Positions 8,570 through 38,291 are shown, counted from the first letter of the stretch. The stretch is 53,003 nucleotides of DNA from Kiloniellales bacterium (GCA_050330055.1 JBHJOF010000004.1:1-53003); one strand, 5' to 3'. Translations and numbers: made by a program. The notes: generated by a model not told the origin, from the sequence alone.

Positions 8570-10270
8570 CTAGTTCCGCCCGCTGAGCAGCCCCCTTGCG
8601 ATCACCTGGGCCTGGATCTCGGCGGCGCCTTCGAAAATGTTGAGGATGCGGGCGTCGCACAGCACGCGGCTGATCTTGTACTCCTGGGCGTAGCCGTTGC
8701 CGCCGTGCACCTGCAGCGCGTTGTCGGCGTTGGCCCAGGCGACGCGGGCGGCCAGCAGCTTGGCCATGCCGGCCTCGATGTCGCAGCGCCGGTCGGAGTC
8801 CTTCTCGCGCGCGGCGAAGTAGGAAAGCTGGCGCGCCACCATGGTCTCGACCGCCATCCAGGCGAGCTTGCCGCCGACGCGCGGGAACTGCACGATCGGT
8901 TTGCCGAACTGCACGCGCTCGAAGGCGTAGCGCAGGCCGAGCTCGAGCGCCGACTGGGCGACGCCCACGGCGCGCGCCGCGGTCTGCACGCGGGCCGACT
9001 CGAAGGTCGCCATGAGCTGCTTGAAGCCCTCGCCCTCGATGCCGCCCAGCAGGTTCTCGGCCTCGACCTCGAAGTTGTCGAAGGCTAGCTCGTACTCCTT
9101 CATGCCGCGGTAGCCGAGCACCGGGATCTCACCGCCGCTCATGCCCGTTGCCGGGAAAGGGTTCTCATCGGTACCGCGCGGCTTCTCAGCCAGGAACATG
9201 GAGAGGCCCTTGTAGCCGCCCTCGTTCGGGTCGGTGCGGGCGAGCAACGTCATGACGTCGCTGCGCGCGGCGTGGGTGATCCAGGTCTTGTTGCCGGTGA
9301 TGCGGTAGACCTCGCCATCACGCACCGCGCGGGTCTTGAGCGCGCCCAGGTCGGAGCCTGTGCCAGGCTCGGTGAAGACCGCGGTCGGCAGGATCGCGCC
9401 CGCGGCGATGCCGGGCAGCCAGCGCTGCTTCTGCTCCTCCGTGCCACCGAGGCGGATCAGCTCGGCGGCGATCTCCGAGCGGGTGCCGAGCGAGCCCAAG
9501 CCGATGTAGCCGCGCGACAGCTCCTCGGTCACCACGCACATGGCAGTCTTGCCCATGCCGAGGCCGCCCCAGTCCTCCGGCACGGTGAGGCCGAAGACGC
9601 CGAGCTCGGCCAGCTGCTCGATCACCTCGATCGGGATCAACTCGTCCTTGAGGTGCCAGTCGTGCGCCGTCTCCCTGTGGTCCTCGGCGATTTTGCGGAA
9701 CTGCTCGCGCACCAGGTCCAGCGTCTCGTCGCCCAGCGCCGGGTCGCCAAAGTCGCCCGAGTCCAGGCCCTCGGCCAAAAGCGCCGCGATGCACTGGCGC
9801 ACCGCCGCCGTGTTGCCGCCGGCGATCAGCGCTTCGACCGCCGGCGTAGCAAAGGCCTGCACCGCCTCGGGCGGCAGGCCGAGGTCGGCCGGACGCACGA
9901 TCTCGCCCTGGCTGAGCGCGATGCCGCCGCGCAGCTGCGACAGGTACTCGCCGAAGGCGGCCTGCAGCAGCAGTCGCTCCAGCTCGCGCAGACGCCCGGC
10001 CTGATCGAGCCGCTCGGCCCAATGCAGTATTTCGCGCAGCGCCGTCACGTAGGTGGCGAGCCAGGCCAGGCCGTGCGCCGCGAACTGCTCCTGGTCCAAC
10101 AGCGCCGCGTCGGGCTGCCCGCCCGGCGCCACTAGCGCCCCCACCGCGCGCCGCGCCATGGCCTGAAAGCTCTCCGCCGTCTTCAGCGCGTCGGCGCAGC
10201 TCGGCAGCAGGTCGGGCACGACCAGAGTCGTTCCGGCGGAAGATTTATCAGCGACGGCGGTTTCAACCAT
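8570..10270 (-). CDS. mcd: acyl-CoA dehydrogenase with a long N-terminal extension; probable (2S)-methylsuccinyl-CoA dehydrogenase
   Basis: 566 aa. The C-terminal ACAD core has FEGAAEIQAQVIAR (catalytic Glu present), preceded by an extension of about 170 aa. Its position next to ccr and ecm is the EMC pathway context. Confidence 0.7.
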   Translation of the reverse strand: MVETAVADKSSAGTTLVVPDLLPSCADALKTAESFQAMARRAVGALVAPGGQPDAALLDQEQFAAHGLAWLATYVTALREILHWAERLDQAGRLRELERLLLQAAFGEYLSQLRGGIALSQGEIVRPADLGLPPEAVQAFATPAVEALIAGGNTAAVRQCIAALLAEGLDSGDFGDPALGDETLDLVREQFRKIAEDHRETAHDWHLKDELIPIEVIEQLAELGVFGLTVPEDWGGLGMGKTAMCVVTEELSRGYIGLGSLGTRSEIAAELIRLGGTEEQKQRWLPGIAAGAILPTAVFTEPGTGSDLGALKTRAVRDGEVYRITGNKTWITHAARSDVMTLLARTDPNEGGYKGLSMFLAEKPRGTDENPFPATGMSGGEIPVLGYRGMKEYELAFDNFEVEAENLLGGIEGEGFKQLMATFESARVQTAARAVGVAQSALELGLRYAFERVQFGKPIVQFPRVGGKLAWMAVETMVARQLSYFAAREKDSDRRCDIEAGMAKLLAARVAWANADNALQVHGGNGYAQEYKISRVLCDARILNIFEGAAEIQAQVIARGLLSGRN

Positions 10271-29579: not shown

Positions 29580-30179
29580 CTAGATCCGCTCCGACAGCCA
29601 GATCGCCAGGCGCGAGCCGGCCTTGATGGCGCCGGACAGCAGCCCATAGGCCGGCGCCTGCTCGGCGCCCGCGGCGAGCGCCGTGTCGCGGTGCTCGAGC
29701 TCCTCGCGGCGGAACTCCTCGATGGTCTCCTGCAGCGGCGCCTCGTCGGGCCCGAACTTTTCCGCCTGCCTAGCATAATGCTCGTTGATCACCTCCTCGA
29801 CCGCCACGGTGCAGGCCATGGCCGCCTTCTCGCCGAGCAGCGCGGTGCCGGCGCCGAGCGCAAAGCCGGCGACGTGCCAGAGCGGCTGCAGCAGGGTGGG
29901 ACGCACGCGGCGCTCGACCATCAGCTTCTCGAAGGTCTGCAGGTGGCGCAGCTCCTGGGCGTGCATATGCAGCAGCGTCGGCGCGCTGCGGCCGCGGCCG
30001 AGCACCGCGAGCTGGCCCTCGTAGATGCGCCGGGCGCCGTATTCGCCGGCGTGATCGACGCGGATCGTGCGCTCGACCAGGGCGCGCGGGCCAAGGTCGC
30101 CGGGCAGGCGTGGCCGGCGCCGGCGCTTTGCCTTCGCCGGCGTCTCGTCGTCGCTGGTCGCTCGTCCAGGCTCGGTCAT
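29580..30179 (-). CDS. coq7: demethoxyubiquinone hydroxylase (di-iron Coq7 family)
   Basis: The C-terminal 199 aa of ORF 29580..31046, from the ATG at 30179 (MTEPGRATSDD). It has VDHAGEYGARRIY, EELRHL, EEVINEHY and EELEHRD, the di-iron ExxH repeats. Confidence 0.85.
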   Translation of the reverse strand: MTEPGRATSDDETPAKAKRRRRPRLPGDLGPRALVERTIRVDHAGEYGARRIYEGQLAVLGRGRSAPTLLHMHAQELRHLQTFEKLMVERRVRPTLLQPLWHVAGFALGAGTALLGEKAAMACTVAVEEVINEHYARQAEKFGPDEAPLQETIEEFRREELEHRDTALAAGAEQAPAYGLLSGAIKAGSRLAIWLSERI

Positions 30180-30742
30180 GCGTGCAGCTCTCGTCGCCCT
30201 TTCCGCCCCCCTCTCCACCCCCCATGCCGCCGGGGACTCACGGCCAGCCACAGGCTCGCGGCGGCCAGGAGCAGGGAGGCGATGACATTGTAGGCGGCCA
30301 TGGAGAGACCGAACAGCGACCACTGCACCTCGTCGCAGGGCACAAAGGATTGGCTCAGCATCTGCTCGCGCAGCTGGTCGATCGAGAGACTGGGATCGAA
30401 GACCGGTGCGTGACATTCCGCCGTGCCGCGCCACCAGTGCTGCTCGACGCCGACGTGGAAGGCGGCGATGCCGGCGCCGGCCAGGAAGCTGAGGCCGGCC
30501 AGCGCCAGGCAGGCGCGCAGCACGGTCGGCCAGCCGGCAAGCAGGACGCCGATCAGGCCGAAGCCGAAGGCCACGCCATAGGCGTAGCGCTGGTAGTAGC
30601 ACAGGATGCAGGGCTGCAGCCCGCCCCAGACCTCCGAGGCGTAGGCGATGGCGAGCGCGGCCAGCGCCGCTGCCATGATCAGGGTCGGCGCGAGCCGCGG
30701 CCTTGCGTAGAAGCGCTGCAACATGACACCAGGTATAGCCAT
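30176..30742 (-). CDS. DsbB-family disulfide bond formation protein
   Basis: It has a CxxC in GGLQPCILCYYQRYAYG and a second Cys pair (ECHAP...VPCDEVQW), with four TM segments. The stop overlaps the coq7 start (ATGA at 30176-30179). The start could be 30742 or 30724. Confidence 0.75.
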   Translation of the reverse strand: MAIPGVMLQRFYARPRLAPTLIMAAALAALAIAYASEVWGGLQPCILCYYQRYAYGVAFGFGLIGVLLAGWPTVLRACLALAGLSFLAGAGIAAFHVGVEQHWWRGTAECHAPVFDPSLSIDQLREQMLSQSFVPCDEVQWSLFGLSMAAYNVIASLLLAAASLWLAVSPRRHGGWRGGRKGRRELHA

Positions 30743-30775
30743 CGCGTCGCCGGCGCGCCAGACCGCCCCGATCAA

Positions 30776-31357
30776 CTAAAAGAGATAGCGCACGGCGACG
30801 AAGCCGCCGAACAGCAGGATGAAGAAGAGGGTCGCGAGCAGCGGCAGGTTGTTCTCGATGAAGCGGCGGATCGGCGGGCCGAAGTACCACAGCAAGGCCG
30901 CCAGTAGGAAGAAGCGCGCGCCGCGCGAGACCACCGAGGCCAGCGTGAAGGTGGCGAGGTCGAGGTCCATGACGCCGCTGGCGATGGTGATGACCTTGTA
31001 GGGGAAGGGCGTGAAGCCGGCCCCGGCGACGATCCACCAGCCCCACTCGCTGTAGATTTCCTGGAAGGCGGCGAAGCGCTCGCCGTAGCCGTAGAACTGC
31101 AGGATCGGCCGGCCGACCGCCTCGAACAGGCCGGCGCCGATGGCGTAGCCGAGGAAGCCGCCCAGCACCGAGGCGACGGTGGCGATCAGCGCGATGCGCC
31201 AGGCCCGGTCGCGGGCCGCCAACACCATGGGGATCATGATTACGTCGGGGGGGATCGGGAAGACCGAGCTCTCGACGAAGGAGATCAGCGCCAGGGCGGC
31301 CAGCGCATGGCGGTGCGCGGCCAGGCCCATGGTCCAGTCGTAAAGGGAACGCAGCAC
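30776..31357 (-). CDS. YqaA/DedA-superfamily (VTT domain) membrane protein
   Basis: LRSLYDWTMGLAAHRHALAALALISFVESSVFPIPPDV matches the YqaA N-terminal pattern. The GTG at 31357 is a tentative start. Confidence 0.7.
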   Translation of the reverse strand: MLRSLYDWTMGLAAHRHALAALALISFVESSVFPIPPDVIMIPMVLAARDRAWRIALIATVASVLGGFLGYAIGAGLFEAVGRPILQFYGYGERFAAFQEIYSEWGWWIVAGAGFTPFPYKVITIASGVMDLDLATFTLASVVSRGARFFLLAALLWYFGPPIRRFIENNLPLLATLFFILLFGGFVAVRYLF

Positions 31358-31494
31358 GGATCGCCGTCGAGCCGGTGAGGGAGCGCGAGCTTTAGCAGGC
31401 GGCGGCCAGGGCGGCAATCGTTCGGGTGCCGGCCGGTGCATTCTGCTAGGCTCGCACCAGAGCGCCGAGCCATTCTGTTCCAGGGGAGCTGCCG

Positions 31495-31902
31495 ATGCGC
31501 GACGAGGCTAGCGTGCTCTTCGCCAACGATGCCTTCTACGAGGCCTTCCGCCAGCGCGACCTGGAGACCATGGACAAGCTCTGGGCGCGCCGTCGGCCGG
31601 TCGCCTGCACCCACCCCGGCTGGCGCACCCTGATCGGCCGCGAGGAAGTCATGGAGAGCTGGGCCGGTATCCTGGGCAACCCGGGCTCGCCGGCCATCAC
31701 CTGCCGCAACGCCATCGCCTTCGTCGAGGGCGACAGCGCGTTCGTCACCTGCTACGAGGCGGTCGGAGGCAACGTGCTGGCCGCCACCAACATCTTCACC
31801 CTGGAGGACGGCCAGTGGCGCCTGGTGCATCACCAGGCCGGCCCCAGCGAGCTGCCGCTCTCCGCCCTCGACGACGCGCCCGAGCCGGGGCCGGTGCAGT
31901 AG
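31495..31902 (+). CDS. SnoaL-like / NTF2-fold protein
   Basis: 135 aa. ANDAFYEAFRQRDLETMDKLWA...ACTHPGW...TNIFTLEDGQWRLVHHQA is typical of the DUF4440/SnoaL fold. Confidence 0.6.
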   Translation: MRDEASVLFANDAFYEAFRQRDLETMDKLWARRRPVACTHPGWRTLIGREEVMESWAGILGNPGSPAITCRNAIAFVEGDSAFVTCYEAVGGNVLAATNIFTLEDGQWRLVHHQAGPSELPLSALDDAPEPGPVQ

Positions 31903-31989: not shown

Positions 31990-32048
31990 TTGCCATGGCG
32001 TCCGGCTCGTCTATAAGGACGTGCTGGTTCGAGTCCGGCCAGGGGCAC
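31990..32048 (+). pseudogene. internally deleted copy of the tRNA-Leu(CAA) locus (upstream leader plus 3-prime 34 nt only)
   Basis: 31990-32014 (ttgccatggcgtccggctcgtctat) matches 38167-38191 at 22 of 25 positions. 32015-32048 (aaggacgtgctggttcgagtccggccaggggcac) is identical to 38256-38289. The intervening 64 nt, including the acceptor 5-prime strand, D-arm and anticodon arm, are absent. Confidence 0.8.
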
Positions 32049-32070: not shown

Positions 32071-33218
32071 CTAGAGGCCGAGCCAACCGGCGACGATGTT
32101 GCGCTGGATCTCCGAGGTGCCGGAGTAGAGGCGGCTGCCCACCGCATCGCGCAGCGCCCGCTCGACCTCGTACTCGGTCAGGAAACCGTAGCCGCCGAAC
32201 AGCTGGATCGTGTCGAGCGCCGCGCGGAGCAGGGACTCGCTCACGAACAGCTTCGAGATCGAGGCATCGAGAGACACGCTCTTCGAGCGCTCGAGGTTCC
32301 ACGCTGCCTTGTAGGTCAAGAGGCGCGCCGCCTCGAGTTGCACCTTCATGTCGGCGATCTTGTGCGCTACCGCCTGAAAGGTGGCGATCGTCTTTCCGGA
32401 CTGCCGCCGGGTGCGGGCATAGTCGATCGCCCTTTCGATCAGCCGTTCGATAGTCCCGACGTGGGTGGCGAAGAGACAGCTGCGCTCCCATTCCATGGAA
32501 TGGACGAACAGTGGTGCGCCCGCCCCGACGCCGCCCAGCACGGCCGCGGCCGGCACGCGCACCTCCTCGAACAGCAGCTCGCTGAAAGGCGAGGTGCGCA
32601 GGCCCATCTTCTCGAACTTCTGGCCCACCCGGTAGCCGAGCGTGTCGCGCTCGACGATGAAGGCGGTGATGCCGCCATGGAAGCCCCGCTCAGGGTCGGT
32701 GACCGCAAACACGAGGGCAAGGTCGGCGACCGGCCCGTTGCTGATGAAGGTCTTCGTGCCGGTGATGCGAAAGCCGTCGCCGTCGGGCTCGGCGCGGGTA
32801 CGGAGCGCAAAGGCATCGGAGCCGGAGCCCGGCTCCGTCATGGCATTGGCGGCGATCAGGCGGCCGTCACACAGACCAGGCAGATAGCGCTGCTTCTGTT
32901 CCTCGCTTCCGAACTTCCAGATCGGCACGACGCAGGACAGCAGGTGCGCCGCGACCGAGAAAACGAGACCGGAGTCCTCGCAGCCATAGCCGAAGGACTC
33001 GAGGGCGATCGCCGTCGACAGGGAATCGAGGCCCGCGCCGCCGTACTCCGCCGGCACCGGCAGGCCGGTCAGACCCATCTCGGCACAGGCCTGCCACAGT
33101 TCGCGCTGGAACAGCTGGCCGCGATCGCGCTCGATCATCCCGTCGTTCAGCTTGGCCCGGGCGAAGCGCGTAATCTCGGCGCGCAGGATTCGCTGCTCCT
33201 CGCTCAACGCGAAATCCA

Positions 33219-33219
<1 letters not shown>
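32071..33219 (-). CDS. acyl-CoA dehydrogenase family flavoenzyme (probably acts on a carrier-protein thioester)
   Basis: 382 aa with the full ACAD fold blocks (AMTEPGSGSD, FISNGPVADL, GYGFLTEY). The MCAD-type catalytic Glu position reads YSGTSE (Ser366). A Glu is present at the IVD-type position (MEWERS, Glu245). The start overlaps the ligase stop (TGATG). Confidence 0.85.
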
Positions 33220-34783
<1,564 letters not shown>

Positions 34784-34787
<4 letters not shown>

Positions 34788-35056
34788 GGCCTTGGCCCGC
34801 CCCAGCCCCGCTTCGATGCCACAAAGTCGGCAATATGCGCGATCGTGTTCAAGTTATCCGCGTCCAGCTCATGCGGCTGGACATTGATGCCGTAAGTTTC
34901 CTCGAGAAAGGCGACGAGCTTGAGCGTAGCCAGCGAGTCGAGGATACCGGAGCTGATCAGCTCTATAGTGTCCTGCAGGCTGTCGGCGCTCTCGCCGGGC
35001 AGGAACTCCTTCAGGATGTACTGTCTGACCTCGTCCTTGATTGCTGGCATGTCCAT
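34784..35056 (-). CDS. acyl/aminoacyl carrier protein (DltC-like)
   Basis: 90 aa from the ATG at 35056, preceded by AGGAG. The phosphopantetheine motif is GILDSLATLKLV (Ser41, codon 34934-34936). Confidence 0.8.
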
Positions 35057-35103
35057 CCCTTGACTCCTAGCTGTCAGGTAATCCTGGGCATTGTGTTGAC
35101 TTT

Positions 35104-37701
35104 CTATCGGGGAAAAGTCGACGCTATATGATCGTCCGTTTGGCGCAGGAGGTCGTAGAGTCGATCTGCGATCAGCTGATGACCGAGCACGTTCGGGTGG
35201 TGATCCCAGCGTGCGACCCACAACGACGATAGGTCATGCCCCTCGTAGACGCCTGTGAGATCGATCACGGCAAAGCCCGCCTCGCGCGCAAGACGCGCCT
35301 CTAGCTCCGGCATGCTGCCCTCGTCCGACTTTTCCGGCCGTGGCAGAAAGGCCCAAACCACCGGGACGCCTTGCTCCAGGCTGACATCCGCCATCCGCTG
35401 ATAGACAACAGACAGGATCCCCTCTTCGTAGGGTGCGAGCTTGCGTTCCAACACGTAGGGATCCGTCGTCCTGTCGATATCGCTTTCCCTGACGGCTGCT
35501 TTGGCAAGTATTTCATGGCGGACGTCGTAGGGCTGGTTGATTCCCTTCTGCAGGACCTCCGCAATCGTGCTGATCACGGTCCTGGCCACATCGGCATGCT
35601 CAACGTAGAGGATCAGGTCAGGAGAGAAGTCGAGCACCTTGCTTTCTAGCTGCACGAGGCGCTGAAGGGGACTGTAGGCGCCTACGCCGAAGTTCAGGAC
35701 TTCGTATCGAGCATAGTTGCTGCCGGAAACTGCGCTGTTAAGTCGCTCCTCCAGAATGGCGCCGAAGGTCTCGTCGTTCTCGACGCCATTGCCAAAAACG
35801 AAGGAGGCGCCGAGCAGCGCAATGCGGAACGTTGCTGGCGGCGGAGTCTTCTCATAGTCTCGGTCGCGCATCCCCCAGCGGTTTGTGCGCACGAGCGCTC
35901 CCGCATGCCGCATCTCAAGCGACGGCCGCAGAGCGAACAGCATCAAGTTTGGTGTTTCCTGGACGAGGTCCGACTCGCGCAGTCGGCCCCACTCCTCCGG
36001 TCGCGTTCGGTAGACCTCCCAAAGCTCGGCATTGAACACGCCGACATCGAGAAGGCTTTCGTAGTATCCCCCTTCGAACTTGGCGAAGTCGCGCCGATTG
36101 AGCTCGGAGTCCCTCAGGCTGGCCATCAGCTGGCGCGCCGTCGAGCCCAAGGGCTCGTAGACGGCCGGAAGCGAAACGATGAGCAGCAATGTGGCAGCCA
36201 CGGTCATCCGCGCCGCCGATTGCACAAAGTTGAATTTCCAGTCGGCCTGGCCGCGCGCGAGCAGGGCCGCCGGCACGGCCACGCCAAGCGCGGCCGCGAG
36301 CAGCATTGCCACGGCCTCCGGGTAAAGCTCCTGCGCCTGCCACAGCACCGCCCAAATGGAGAGCCACTCGCCAACCGAGCTGGCACTCCAGAACGACCAG
36401 AGTAGCGCGATGGAAAGGAACACGCCTAGCGTGCGCAGCGCCGTCGTCGCCGTTTCGCGCAGGGACAAGGCCTCTCCCGCCAGCCTCCGTCTGCGGCCCT
36501 TTTTTGTTTCATAAACCGCGTTGACGACGACCAGCAGGCCCAGAAATCCCCAAAAGAGGCTGTCGTTCCAACTCACCAGCGCCGCACCGCGAATCCAGAA
36601 CCACTGATAGGAGTGCAACAGCCATGTCATGAAAAATGCGCAAAGCGTCGCGATCACCAGTGCCGCGGTTTCGCCATGCCCGCGTATTCTGAAGAACACC
36701 GGATAGAACACCACTTTCATTATGAAGTCTTTCCAGTAGATGTTTATCCGCCGCCAGAAATCGGTGAAGCTCGATGACAGGAAGTAGAGCTTGTGCGTTT
36801 CCGGGAGATTGAATCCAAAGAGGTGTAGTAGCCCCGTGATGATGTGAAAAGTGCCGGAGACGCGCAGATAGAGAAGGAACGGCCACAGGAAGTACTGCAC
36901 GGCGTCACGGCTGTTTGCGACGTCAGCCGCGTCGATGACGAAGTTGTGATAAATCAATCGGTAGAGAATGAGGTGCAGGACTCCGCGGAAAAGCCAGTGG
37001 ATTCCCGTCTGATAGATCTCATGCCGGTCAGGCTGGTTGTAGTAGGTCCGCCGAAACGTCTGGAAATCGACGACCGGAAACAGCGGAAAACAGACGTTCG
37101 GCAGCATGAAGAAATAGGCGAGCGTCTGCGAAAGACTTGCCGGTTTGCTTTCGTGCCGCAGGTGATGGAGATAGAGGATCATCCGGAACATGACCATCGA
37201 GGCAACGATCGGCCAAATGGCGTTCGACCAAGGCACCGGGATCAGGTCCGCCCGGGCGAGCGCAAGAACGCCGCCCACCGCGACTAGCAGGGCAACCCGC
37301 AGGGCAAAGCGCACTGGCAGATGGCACAGCACGATGAGCCCGAGGACGATGGCGATGATCCAGGCGCCCTGCGCGAGGCCTTGCAGCGACCACTGTTCTT
37401 CCTGAAATCCGAAAACCAGCTCGATGCCGACCAGCGATAGGAAGACGAAGAATGGCAAGCGAAAGCGGAACGGCAGGAGGTAGTGAATGGACCAGCCGAC
37501 AAAGATCAGAATCGAGAGGTGCAGGAAGGCCCGGCTCTCCAGCCTGAACTGATAAACCAGAAGAATAAAGAGGCCGAGCTGAAATCCAATGGCAACATAG
37601 TGTCCGAGGCTAAATCCCTGCCCCTTGGCTAGGGTCAAGACCTTGGTCGCGTGCGACGCCGCCGTGCCAAACGTGGGTATAGTCAAAGCAATGCCCCCCA
37701 T
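35104..37701 (-). CDS. MBOAT (DltB/AlgI-like) membrane acyltransferase fused to a C-terminal SGNH/DltD-like domain
   Basis: 865 aa. The polytopic N-terminal half has the MBOAT signature GFNLPETHKLYFLSSSFTDFWRRINIYW and invariant-type His363 (TWLLHSYQ). The C-terminal soluble domain, from about residue 520, has FRIALLGASFVFG (Ser633) and RWDHHPNVLGH (Asp833/His835). Confidence 0.8.
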   Translation of the reverse strand: MGGIALTIPTFGTAASHATKVLTLAKGQGFSLGHYVAIGFQLGLFILLVYQFRLESRAFLHLSILIFVGWSIHYLLPFRFRLPFFVFLSLVGIELVFGFQEEQWSLQGLAQGAWIIAIVLGLIVLCHLPVRFALRVALLVAVGGVLALARADLIPVPWSNAIWPIVASMVMFRMILYLHHLRHESKPASLSQTLAYFFMLPNVCFPLFPVVDFQTFRRTYYNQPDRHEIYQTGIHWLFRGVLHLILYRLIYHNFVIDAADVANSRDAVQYFLWPFLLYLRVSGTFHIITGLLHLFGFNLPETHKLYFLSSSFTDFWRRINIYWKDFIMKVVFYPVFFRIRGHGETAALVIATLCAFFMTWLLHSYQWFWIRGAALVSWNDSLFWGFLGLLVVVNAVYETKKGRRRRLAGEALSLRETATTALRTLGVFLSIALLWSFWSASSVGEWLSIWAVLWQAQELYPEAVAMLLAAALGVAVPAALLARGQADWKFNFVQSAARMTVAATLLLIVSLPAVYEPLGSTARQLMASLRDSELNRRDFAKFEGGYYESLLDVGVFNAELWEVYRTRPEEWGRLRESDLVQETPNLMLFALRPSLEMRHAGALVRTNRWGMRDRDYEKTPPPATFRIALLGASFVFGNGVENDETFGAILEERLNSAVSGSNYARYEVLNFGVGAYSPLQRLVQLESKVLDFSPDLILYVEHADVARTVISTIAEVLQKGINQPYDVRHEILAKAAVRESDIDRTTDPYVLERKLAPYEEGILSVVYQRMADVSLEQGVPVVWAFLPRPEKSDEGSMPELEARLAREAGFAVIDLTGVYEGHDLSSLWVARWDHHPNVLGHQLIADRLYDLLRQTDDHIASTFPR

Positions 37702-38204
37702 GCACGCGGGTGCAGCTATGCGGTCCTGAACCAGCCCCGATTAGGCACCGGACCAGCATCCAGAGCATGCTCGGGATGCTTCGGCTCCTCCCGCGCGGTG
37801 GCGCTCGCTCCCGGCATTTATTGCCGCCCGTTTGAGGCGCCAGGGCCCTTCTATGGGCCGACGGACGCAGAAGTCCGCCGCCAGCCTGGGCGCTTCGCCG
37901 AGCCTCTCCCTTTTATCAGCTTTTGCCCATTCCGCAATCACTTGAGCGCGACCGATTCTGCAAGTGCCTAAAGCACCGGACCTTTTTTGGCGAGCACCAG
38001 AGGACCCTGCGTCAGCACGGCGTTGGACCGGCGACACCGGACCTGGCCGGGACAGGAGGAGCAGGGACAGGGCAACCCGCCGGGCGCTCGCCCCATGCCG
38101 TGCCGCGCGACTGCGCCGCCGACGAGCTTGATGTGCGGGGAGCCCGGCTTCTGGCCGCTTGCCCGGTTGCCATGGTGCACGGCTCGTCTATGATGCCGGC
38201 CCGT

Positions 38205-38291
38205 GCCCCTGTGGCGGAATTGGTAGACGCGACAGACTCAAAATCTGTTGTCCGCAAGGACGTGCTGGTTCGAGTCCGGCCAGGGGCACCA
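38205..38291 (+). tRNA. tRNA-Leu, anticodon CAA, CCA encoded
   Basis: Hand-folded cloverleaf: acceptor gcccctg/caggggc, anticodon stem acaga/tctgt with loop ctCAAaa, a long variable arm (class II), T-arm gctgg ttcgagt ccggc, discriminator A, then CCA. Confidence 0.9.

Follow-up and report, generated by a model that had tools for sequence, protein, structure and literature searches.

A putative prolyl-carrier-protein dehydrogenase with an isovaleryl-CoA dehydrogenase-type glutamate in a Dlt-like membrane acylation cassette

Results

An acyl-CoA dehydrogenase homologue of the prolyl oxidase type

The best explanation as a whole for the acyl-CoA dehydrogenase (ACAD) homologue encoded at positions 32071–33219 of the window (the entire 53,003-nucleotide stretch of Kiloniellales DNA that we analysed) is that it is a prolyl-carrier dehydrogenase in a Dlt-like cassette, a reading to which we assign a probability of roughly 0.8. 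The enzyme itself is a fresh member of an already known family: judged from its sequence, it is very probably an FAD-dependent prolyl-S-carrier-protein dehydrogenase/oxidase of the AnaB/PigA/RedW/PltE/Bmp3 family and not a free acyl-CoA dehydrogenase. The unusual point lies in the company it keeps, as a Dlt-type membrane acyltransferase is here paired with a prolyl oxidase and no assembly-line partner. The gene and its two active-site positions are as follows.

32071–33219, minus strand: ACAD homologue, predicted prolyl-carrier-protein dehydrogenase/oxidase, 382 amino acids (Pfam, NCBIfam, solved relatives, trees, AU test)
32485–32487, minus strand: codon of Glu245, predicted catalytic base at the helix-G or isovaleryl-CoA dehydrogenase (IVD)-type position (alignments to AnaB, PigA, Bmp3 and the IVD of the same genome; conservation in the clade)
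32122–32124, minus strand: codon of Ser366, at the position of the medium-chain acyl-CoA dehydrogenase (MCAD)-type catalytic Glu, Y-E-G-T having become Y-S-G-T (alignments; conservation in the clade)

The Pfam domains Acyl-CoA_dh_N, _M and _1 were all found at full length, spanning residues 6–379, and the start codon agrees with the N-termini of PigA and AnaB in the alignment. Translation of the reading frame places Glu at residue 245, in the context S-M-E-W-E-R-S-C, and Ser at residue 366, in the context R-L-Y-S-G-T-S-E. The three positions on either side of Ser366 are free of acidic residues in the translated frame, and the nearby Glu370 is the G-T-S-E glutamate that is common to ordinary ACADs too.

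To place these residues we compared the protein with the genome's own ACADs. The assembly (4.8 Mb in 416 contigs) encodes about 14 ACAD paralogues elsewhere, all of them at most 39% identical to the protein, and 12 were aligned with it using MAFFT. Most of the 12 read [YWLF]-E-G-T, their Glu standing opposite Ser366, and these show Gly, Thr, Ser or Ala opposite Glu245. A single paralogue, on contig C15 (16369–17541), instead combines L-D-Y-E-R with G-A-G-T-S-E and has its Glu in the Glu245 column. With 690 bits against 4o5m and 547 bits against human 1ivh, it is by sequence a true isovaleryl-CoA dehydrogenase, and its Glu250 aligns gap-free with Glu254 of 1ivh (L-D-L-E-R-L); by the same alignment chain, Ser366 corresponds to Ala375 of IVD. 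The initial annotation had proposed that the protein lacks the MCAD-type catalytic Glu and carries an IVD-type Glu in MEWERS instead. Translation and paralogue alignment agree on the first part, with Ser in the Y-S-G-T motif and no acidic residue of the protein in the Ser366 column when checked by sequence alignment with the 12 paralogues, and the second part is correct because Glu250 of the genome's own IVD equals 1ivh Glu254 and shares the column of Glu245. A second ACAD paralogue lies inside the window itself (8570–10270, minus strand, 566 amino acids); it carries F-E-G-A with an MCAD-type Glu, is 33% identical to the protein and is unrelated to it.

The two residues are the hallmark of a known family

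The closest solved relatives of the ACAD homologue were AnaB (4irn, 392 bits), PigA (5zw0, 320 bits) and Bmp3 (6cxt, 317 bits), the last of these entries being the Bmp3–Bmp1 complex (PMC8857579). The best ordinary ACAD among the solved structures scored 277 bits, the IVD entries 229–260 bits and MCAD about 229 bits. AnaB, PigA and Bmp3 each align a Glu to Glu245 without gaps and a Ser to Ser366, and identity to AnaB around both active-site positions is about 50%, also gap-free. The helix-G Glu is Glu244 in PigA and, by count along the tagged 4irn chain, also Glu244 in AnaB; when the PigA mutant 6af6 (E244A) is set against the wild type, the Ala falls exactly at the Glu that aligns with Glu245. 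Moncoq et al. in 2013 are said to have superimposed AnaB Glu244 on the IVD base, and Mann et al. in 2011 reportedly found that oxidation by AnaB stops after two electrons. The helix-G Glu is a conserved catalytic residue, essential in AnaB and Bmp3, and has been proposed to deprotonate C2 of the prolyl thioester (PMC10849742). That carrier-dependent prolyl oxidases place their base here had been put forward in the initial annotation and is now borne out by the three alignments, the 6af6 mutant and the published work.

The top NCBIfam matches of the protein were the PigA model (NF053553, 458 bits) and the RedW model (NF045652, 431 bits). Both scores stay below the respective equivalogue cut-offs of 500 and 650 bits, so that the protein does not count as an orthologue of either PigA or RedW; it outscores Bmp3-like and AnaB-like cluster representatives on both models. 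Neither RedW nor PigA was found in 14 control genomes. Four residues of Bmp3 have been reported as carrier contacts (PMC8857579), and alignment indicates that Thr274 is kept, Tyr178 is replaced by Phe, and Leu179 and Arg277 are not conserved in the ACAD homologue. Read from sequence, the combination of the helix-G Glu with Ser366 is the hallmark of the known prolyl-carrier-protein dehydrogenase family (AnaB, PigA, RedW, Bmp3); the residue pattern is thus diagnostic and not surprising, which the initial annotation had understated.

Phylogeny places the protein with prolyl oxidases and away from IVD

The tree set of 212 sequences was drawn from three sources, namely 150 representatives of an exhaustive search, 77 ACADs encoded at related loci and the paralogues of this genome; Glu and Ser occupy both columns in 132 of the 212. 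The protein from 32071–33219 sits deep inside a 147-row clade with support of 100 (FastTree), in which Glu245 is present in 99% and Ser366 in 90% of the rows, and IVD-type and MCAD-type enzymes fall on its opposite side. No column of the protein sets the clade apart more sharply than Ser366, which was found in 0% of the sequences outside the clade in this sample. At 22 of the 25 most discriminating columns, the top 14 all included, the protein carries the clade consensus; M242, W42, D82, F238 and W244 are among the top columns.

In a smaller tree (IQ-TREE PMSF, 65 rows) the protein belongs to a 41-row clade with support of 99 that also contains P0037, a RedW equivalogue (696 bits, cut-off 650), as well as P0067 and P0043, which are labelled Bmp3-like and AnaB-like, respectively, from short motifs only. 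Within it, the protein's own 21-row clade is sister to the clade with the AnaB-like P0043, at weak support of 81. A clade of the ACAD group with IVD orthologues was rejected by the AU test (delta lnL 172, p 0.000175). Firm clustering with IVD orthologues or other free acyl-CoA dehydrogenases, named at the outset as the outcome that would speak against a carrier-bound substrate, is hence not what the trees and the AU test return: the protein groups with the RedW equivalogue at 99–100% support.

Several other lineages in these trees deserve mention in their own right. Four sequences (P0032, P0074, P0119 and L031:5094-6227) branch just outside the Glu/Ser clade with a helix-G W-E-R and a G-A-G-T or G-G-G-T motif; they are IVD-like at both positions, yet nearer to the prolyl oxidases in the tree. 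Seven high-scoring representatives (P0003, P0006, P0007, P0017, P0020, P0021 and P0023) are 610–800 amino acids long with two ACAD-like stretches each and, judging by these stretches, are fused or tandem double ACADs related to the prolyl-oxidase family. P0113 and P0045 lie inside the prolyl-oxidase clade without the Glu, having Gln or Asp at column 245 and Ala at column 366. They may catalyse a different reaction, by analogy with ChmG, which bears Met and carries out a different reaction (PMC10849742). Finally, distant Glu/Ser ACADs at eight loci (L035, L037, L038, L040, L062 and L069 from Streptomyces, L032 and L033) adjoin an adenylating enzyme and a carrier; the adenylation code at these loci is DLLQVTVDSK/R, unlike that of PltF, and L038 (Streptomyces anulatus) may correspond to the chalkophomycin chmG-J region.

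The neighbouring genes encode a putative proline-adenylating enzyme and a carrier protein

Two genes that precede the ACAD gene on the same strand were assigned as follows.

33219–34787, minus strand: stand-alone adenylating enzyme, predicted to be L-proline specific, 522 amino acids (AMP-binding and AMP-binding_C domains, PltF match, specificity code)
34784–35056, minus strand: carrier protein, 90 amino acids, with a predicted phosphopantetheine site at Ser41 in L-D-S-L, codon 34934–34936 (PP-binding domain, start codon and ribosome-binding site as read, solved relatives)

The stop codon of the adenylating-enzyme gene (TGA, 33221–33219) overlaps the ATG of the ACAD gene (33219–33217) by one base as TGATG, and the carrier stop and the ATG of the adenylating enzyme overlap as ATGA; the coupling of the three genes that had been noted from the sequence is therefore present at both junctions. 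Almost every related locus has the overlap between the adenylating-enzyme and ACAD genes at the same position.

The best single-domain solved relative of the adenylating enzyme was PltF (6o6e, 354 bits). Its ten specificity positions, read off the conserved core motifs, give the code DLLYLALVCK, which does not vary among 21 orthologues from cassettes in several phyla and had no match in a full-text literature search. By direct alignment with 6o6e, all nine readable positions (DLLYLALVC) are identical to those of PltF, whereas the code differs from that of DltA (3dhv) at six of the nine and shares three. We therefore predict that the enzyme is specific for proline. Among the solved relatives of the carrier are the carrier domain of Bmp1 at 35 bits, PltL at 31 bits and DltC at 26 bits, and Ser41 of the carrier aligns with the Ser/Ala difference that separates 2my5 from 2my6. 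Its best NCBIfam match was a model named 'ACP for OlsHI', at 91 bits against a cut-off of 130. The enzymes of the OlsHI pathway are GH3-like and of the alpha/beta hydrolase type (PMC12493201), both unrelated to the four-gene cassette, and an assignment as an OlsHI-type carrier was dropped. Overall, the aligned prolyl oxidases, the tree placement, the PltF code of the partner enzyme and the likeness of the carrier support the proposal of the initial annotation that the substrate is probably tethered to a carrier and is not a free CoA thioester.

The first gene encodes a predicted DltB-like MBOAT fused to an SGNH domain

35104–37701, minus strand: polytopic protein of 865 amino acids, MBOAT (DltB-like fold) with a C-terminal SGNH/GDSL fusion (AlphaFold2, Foldseek, weak Pfam GDSL matches)

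The N-terminal 600 residues of this protein gave no match in Pfam (E up to 1) or in a sequence search of the PDB, and its assignment as an MBOAT therefore needed a structure model. An AlphaFold2 model built on 18 orthologues had a mean pLDDT of 75.5, with values below 50 in the region of the conserved W-R-R-I-N motif. Its best Foldseek match was DltB (8jem and 6bug, TM-target 0.62–0.65), followed by HHAT and PORCN, and its C-terminal part matched SGNH/GDSL esterases. N320, H363, S633, N670 and H835 are invariant in the 18 orthologues. A positive-inside count puts residues 520–865 outside the cytoplasm, and the SGNH domain is accordingly predicted to be periplasmic. The protein would thus be a DltB-type MBOAT by fold only, the model being of medium confidence and Pfam MBOAT unmatched.

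The four-gene cassette recurs across phyla

The gene order MBOAT-SGNH, carrier, adenylating enzyme, ACAD recurs in about 20 genomes of alpha-, beta- and gamma-proteobacteria, Acidobacteriota and Gemmatimonadota, Mesorhizobium species among them. The cassette was found wherever the ACAD was at least 59% identical and the contig long enough, with the exception of three loci, one of which has no MBOAT-SGNH match in its 8-kb flanks and two of which are arranged differently. Clustering of all open reading frames at 18 loci revealed no further gene conserved beside the four. The cassette itself encodes no condensation, ketosynthase or thioesterase partner, and no acceptor, phosphopantetheinyl transferase or electron acceptor either.

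In the window, the cassette is bracketed by two tRNA sequences.

38205–38291, plus strand: tRNA-Leu(CAA), right border of the cassette (ARAGORN)
32015–32048, plus strand: partial direct copy of the tRNA-Leu 3' end, left border, 23 nucleotides past the ACAD stop codon (alignment, 34 identical bases)

The cassette so bracketed looks like a small horizontally acquired islet. The tRNA bracket fits horizontal acquisition, as do the G+C content, which drops to 0.56–0.63 over 35000–38000, the stretch that holds the MBOAT gene, compared with 0.68 overall, and the failure to find the 865-residue protein in 60 sampled relatives from the same family and order. No integrase was found at the bracketed cassette, and the layout, with the partial copy upstream of the intact tRNA-Leu, is unusual. 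No tRNA genes adjoin the cassette in 15 other genomes, and the tRNA-Leu site is therefore particular to this genome. Just past the left border, a run of genes (29580–31441, minus strand) encodes a DedA/VTT-domain protein, DsbB and a COQ7-like protein, and a convergent SnoaL-like gene (31495–31902, plus strand) lies between this run and the cassette; none of these neighbours is conserved beside the cassette in other genomes.

Discussion

We considered whether the ACAD homologue could instead be a free acyl-CoA dehydrogenase of the IVD or LCAD type, using the helix-G base in branched-chain or fatty-acid catabolism, with an adenylating enzyme and a carrier next to it only by chance. The alignment of Glu245 with IVD Glu254, an ACAD fold that is intact overall and the 229–260 bits of the IVD entries would all suit such an enzyme, but the genome already has its true IVD on contig C15, at 690 bits to 4o5m and only 38% identical to the ACAD homologue, and a clade that joins the homologue to IVD orthologues fails the AU test. 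Furthermore, Ser366 never occurs outside the prolyl-oxidase clade in our sample, the one-base stop/start overlap with the adenylating-enzyme gene is kept across phyla, and catabolic neighbours are absent, and we regard this explanation as highly improbable. A carrier-dependent enzyme acting on something other than proline, for example on another aminoacyl or acyl thioester that is desaturated as by the acyl-ACP dehydrogenases FkbI or MbtN, is also improbable, albeit to a lesser degree. The adenylating enzyme does reach 273 bits on DltA models, only the proline ligases stand ahead of DltA among the solved matches of the pocket region, and the ACAD homologue falls short of the PigA and RedW equivalogue cut-offs; against this, the pocket is identical to that of PltF at nine of nine positions and to that of DltA at only three of nine, the code does not vary across phyla, the MbtN model reaches only 59 bits against a cut-off of 700, and FkbI-type entries are absent among the best 60 solved relatives.

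The alternative that comes closest to our reading stays within the same family and differs in the outcome, with a single two-electron oxidation, as in AnaB, yielding a pyrroline-carboxyl thioester (a cyclic imine) that would then be transferred by the MBOAT-SGNH protein. Among the solved relatives AnaB comes first, with 392 bits compared with 320 for PigA and 317 for Bmp3, and the 21-row clade of the ACAD homologue is the weakly supported sister of the clade with the AnaB-like P0043, whereas chemical stability would favour a pyrrole ester as the end product. To our knowledge, no residue separates two-electron from four-electron prolyl oxidases, and similarity to AnaB alone can therefore not decide the outcome. 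Overall, we consider the pyrroline outcome unlikely, although well ahead of the two explanations above.

Under the preferred reading of a prolyl-carrier dehydrogenase in a Dlt-like cassette, the four proteins could act in sequence. The PltF-like enzyme would, according to its specificity code, adenylate L-proline and load it onto the phosphopantetheine of Ser41 of the carrier. Judging from the characterised members of its family, the ACAD homologue would then use Glu245 to take the C2 proton of the prolyl thioester while the hydride passes to FAD, and one round of oxidation (as in AnaB) would give a pyrroline-carboxyl thioester or two rounds (as in PigA, RedW and Bmp3) pyrrole-2-carboxyl-S-carrier. 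As there is no condensation, ketosynthase or thioesterase partner, the DltB-like MBOAT is the most likely recipient of the acyl group; the conserved gene association and the folds suggest that it could take the acyl group across the membrane and that the fused periplasmic SGNH domain could place it on an envelope or extracellular acceptor. The complete hand-off from proline to carrier, oxidation, MBOAT-SGNH and acceptor is tentative, at slightly under even odds. The cassette has the look of a Dlt-like 'pyrrole-acyl' transfer system not described so far, and we propose, with a little less confidence still, a Dlt-like envelope modification in which the acyl group is remodelled on the carrier before export and a pyrrole- (or pyrroline-) 2-carboxyl group, which would be aromatic and without charge, goes through the MBOAT and is esterified by the SGNH domain onto an envelope glycan or lipid, the four-gene unit having spread horizontally. 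A 'pyrroloylation'-type surface decoration was absent from the literature searched, and nothing relevant turned up there on a system that combines MBOAT, SGNH, carrier and ACAD or on a Dlt system of the proline type, which does not by itself show that none has been described.

The helix-G Glu together with the Y-S-G-T Ser offers a cheap and reliable marker that tells carrier-dependent proline oxidases from look-alike acyl-CoA dehydrogenases, which annotation pipelines lump together, and here the marker points to a Dlt-like membrane acylation cassette that handles oxidised proline and not a plain amino acid. If the hand-off is true, thiotemplated pyrrole chemistry would extend beyond antibiotic and pigment pathways to decoration of the envelope or matrix in soil and wastewater bacteria (Mesorhizobium, Accumulibacter, Nitrosospira, Acidobacteriota).

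Comparison with known systems

With AnaB, PigA, RedW, PltE and Bmp3, the ACAD homologue shares the ACAD fold, the Glu of M-x-W-E-R, the Ser of Y/F-S-G-T and a common clade, as well as two partners, a stand-alone adenylating enzyme of the proline type and a small carrier. It differs from PigA and RedW by its sub-cut-off scores and by forming its own subclade, the members of which are 59–75% identical, and from all five in that it has no NRPS, PKS, ketosynthase, halogenase or thioesterase partner and is linked to an MBOAT-SGNH membrane protein instead. IVD (human 1ivh and the bacterial LiuA-type 4o5m) likewise has the helix-G Glu, at the Glu254 position, and no Glu at the position of MCAD Glu376; however, it has Ala in G-A-G-T where the ACAD homologue has Ser in Y-S-G-T, the genome's true IVD is only about 38% identical, and IVD acts on a free CoA thioester, unlike our reading of the enzyme described here. 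MCAD (3mdd) has in common with it the overall fold and the FAD-dependent chemistry of alpha-proton abstraction, but its base is Glu376 in Y-E-G-T, where the homologue has Ser366.

The cassette as a whole shares its logic with the Dlt pathway of teichoic-acid D-alanylation (DltA, DltC, DltB, DltD and DltX), in which an adenylating enzyme charges a small carrier, an MBOAT moves the acyl group through the membrane and an SGNH-like extracytoplasmic partner comes last. In contrast to Dlt, the pocket of the adenylating enzyme is of the proline type and not of the D-alanine type, the carrier-bound acyl group would be remodelled by an oxidising enzyme, MBOAT and SGNH domain form one fused protein, and most hosts belong to Gram-negative phyla that lack teichoic acids. 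The aminocoumarin pathways (CloN1-N7 and CouN1-N7) esterify a carrier-bound pyrrole-2-carboxyl group made from proline to a sugar hydroxyl; this transfer is cytoplasmic, uses soluble acyltransferases and forms part of an antibiotic pathway. The proposed proline-derived, carrier-bound pyrrole acyl group would be common to these pathways and the cassette, which instead has a membrane MBOAT-SGNH protein.
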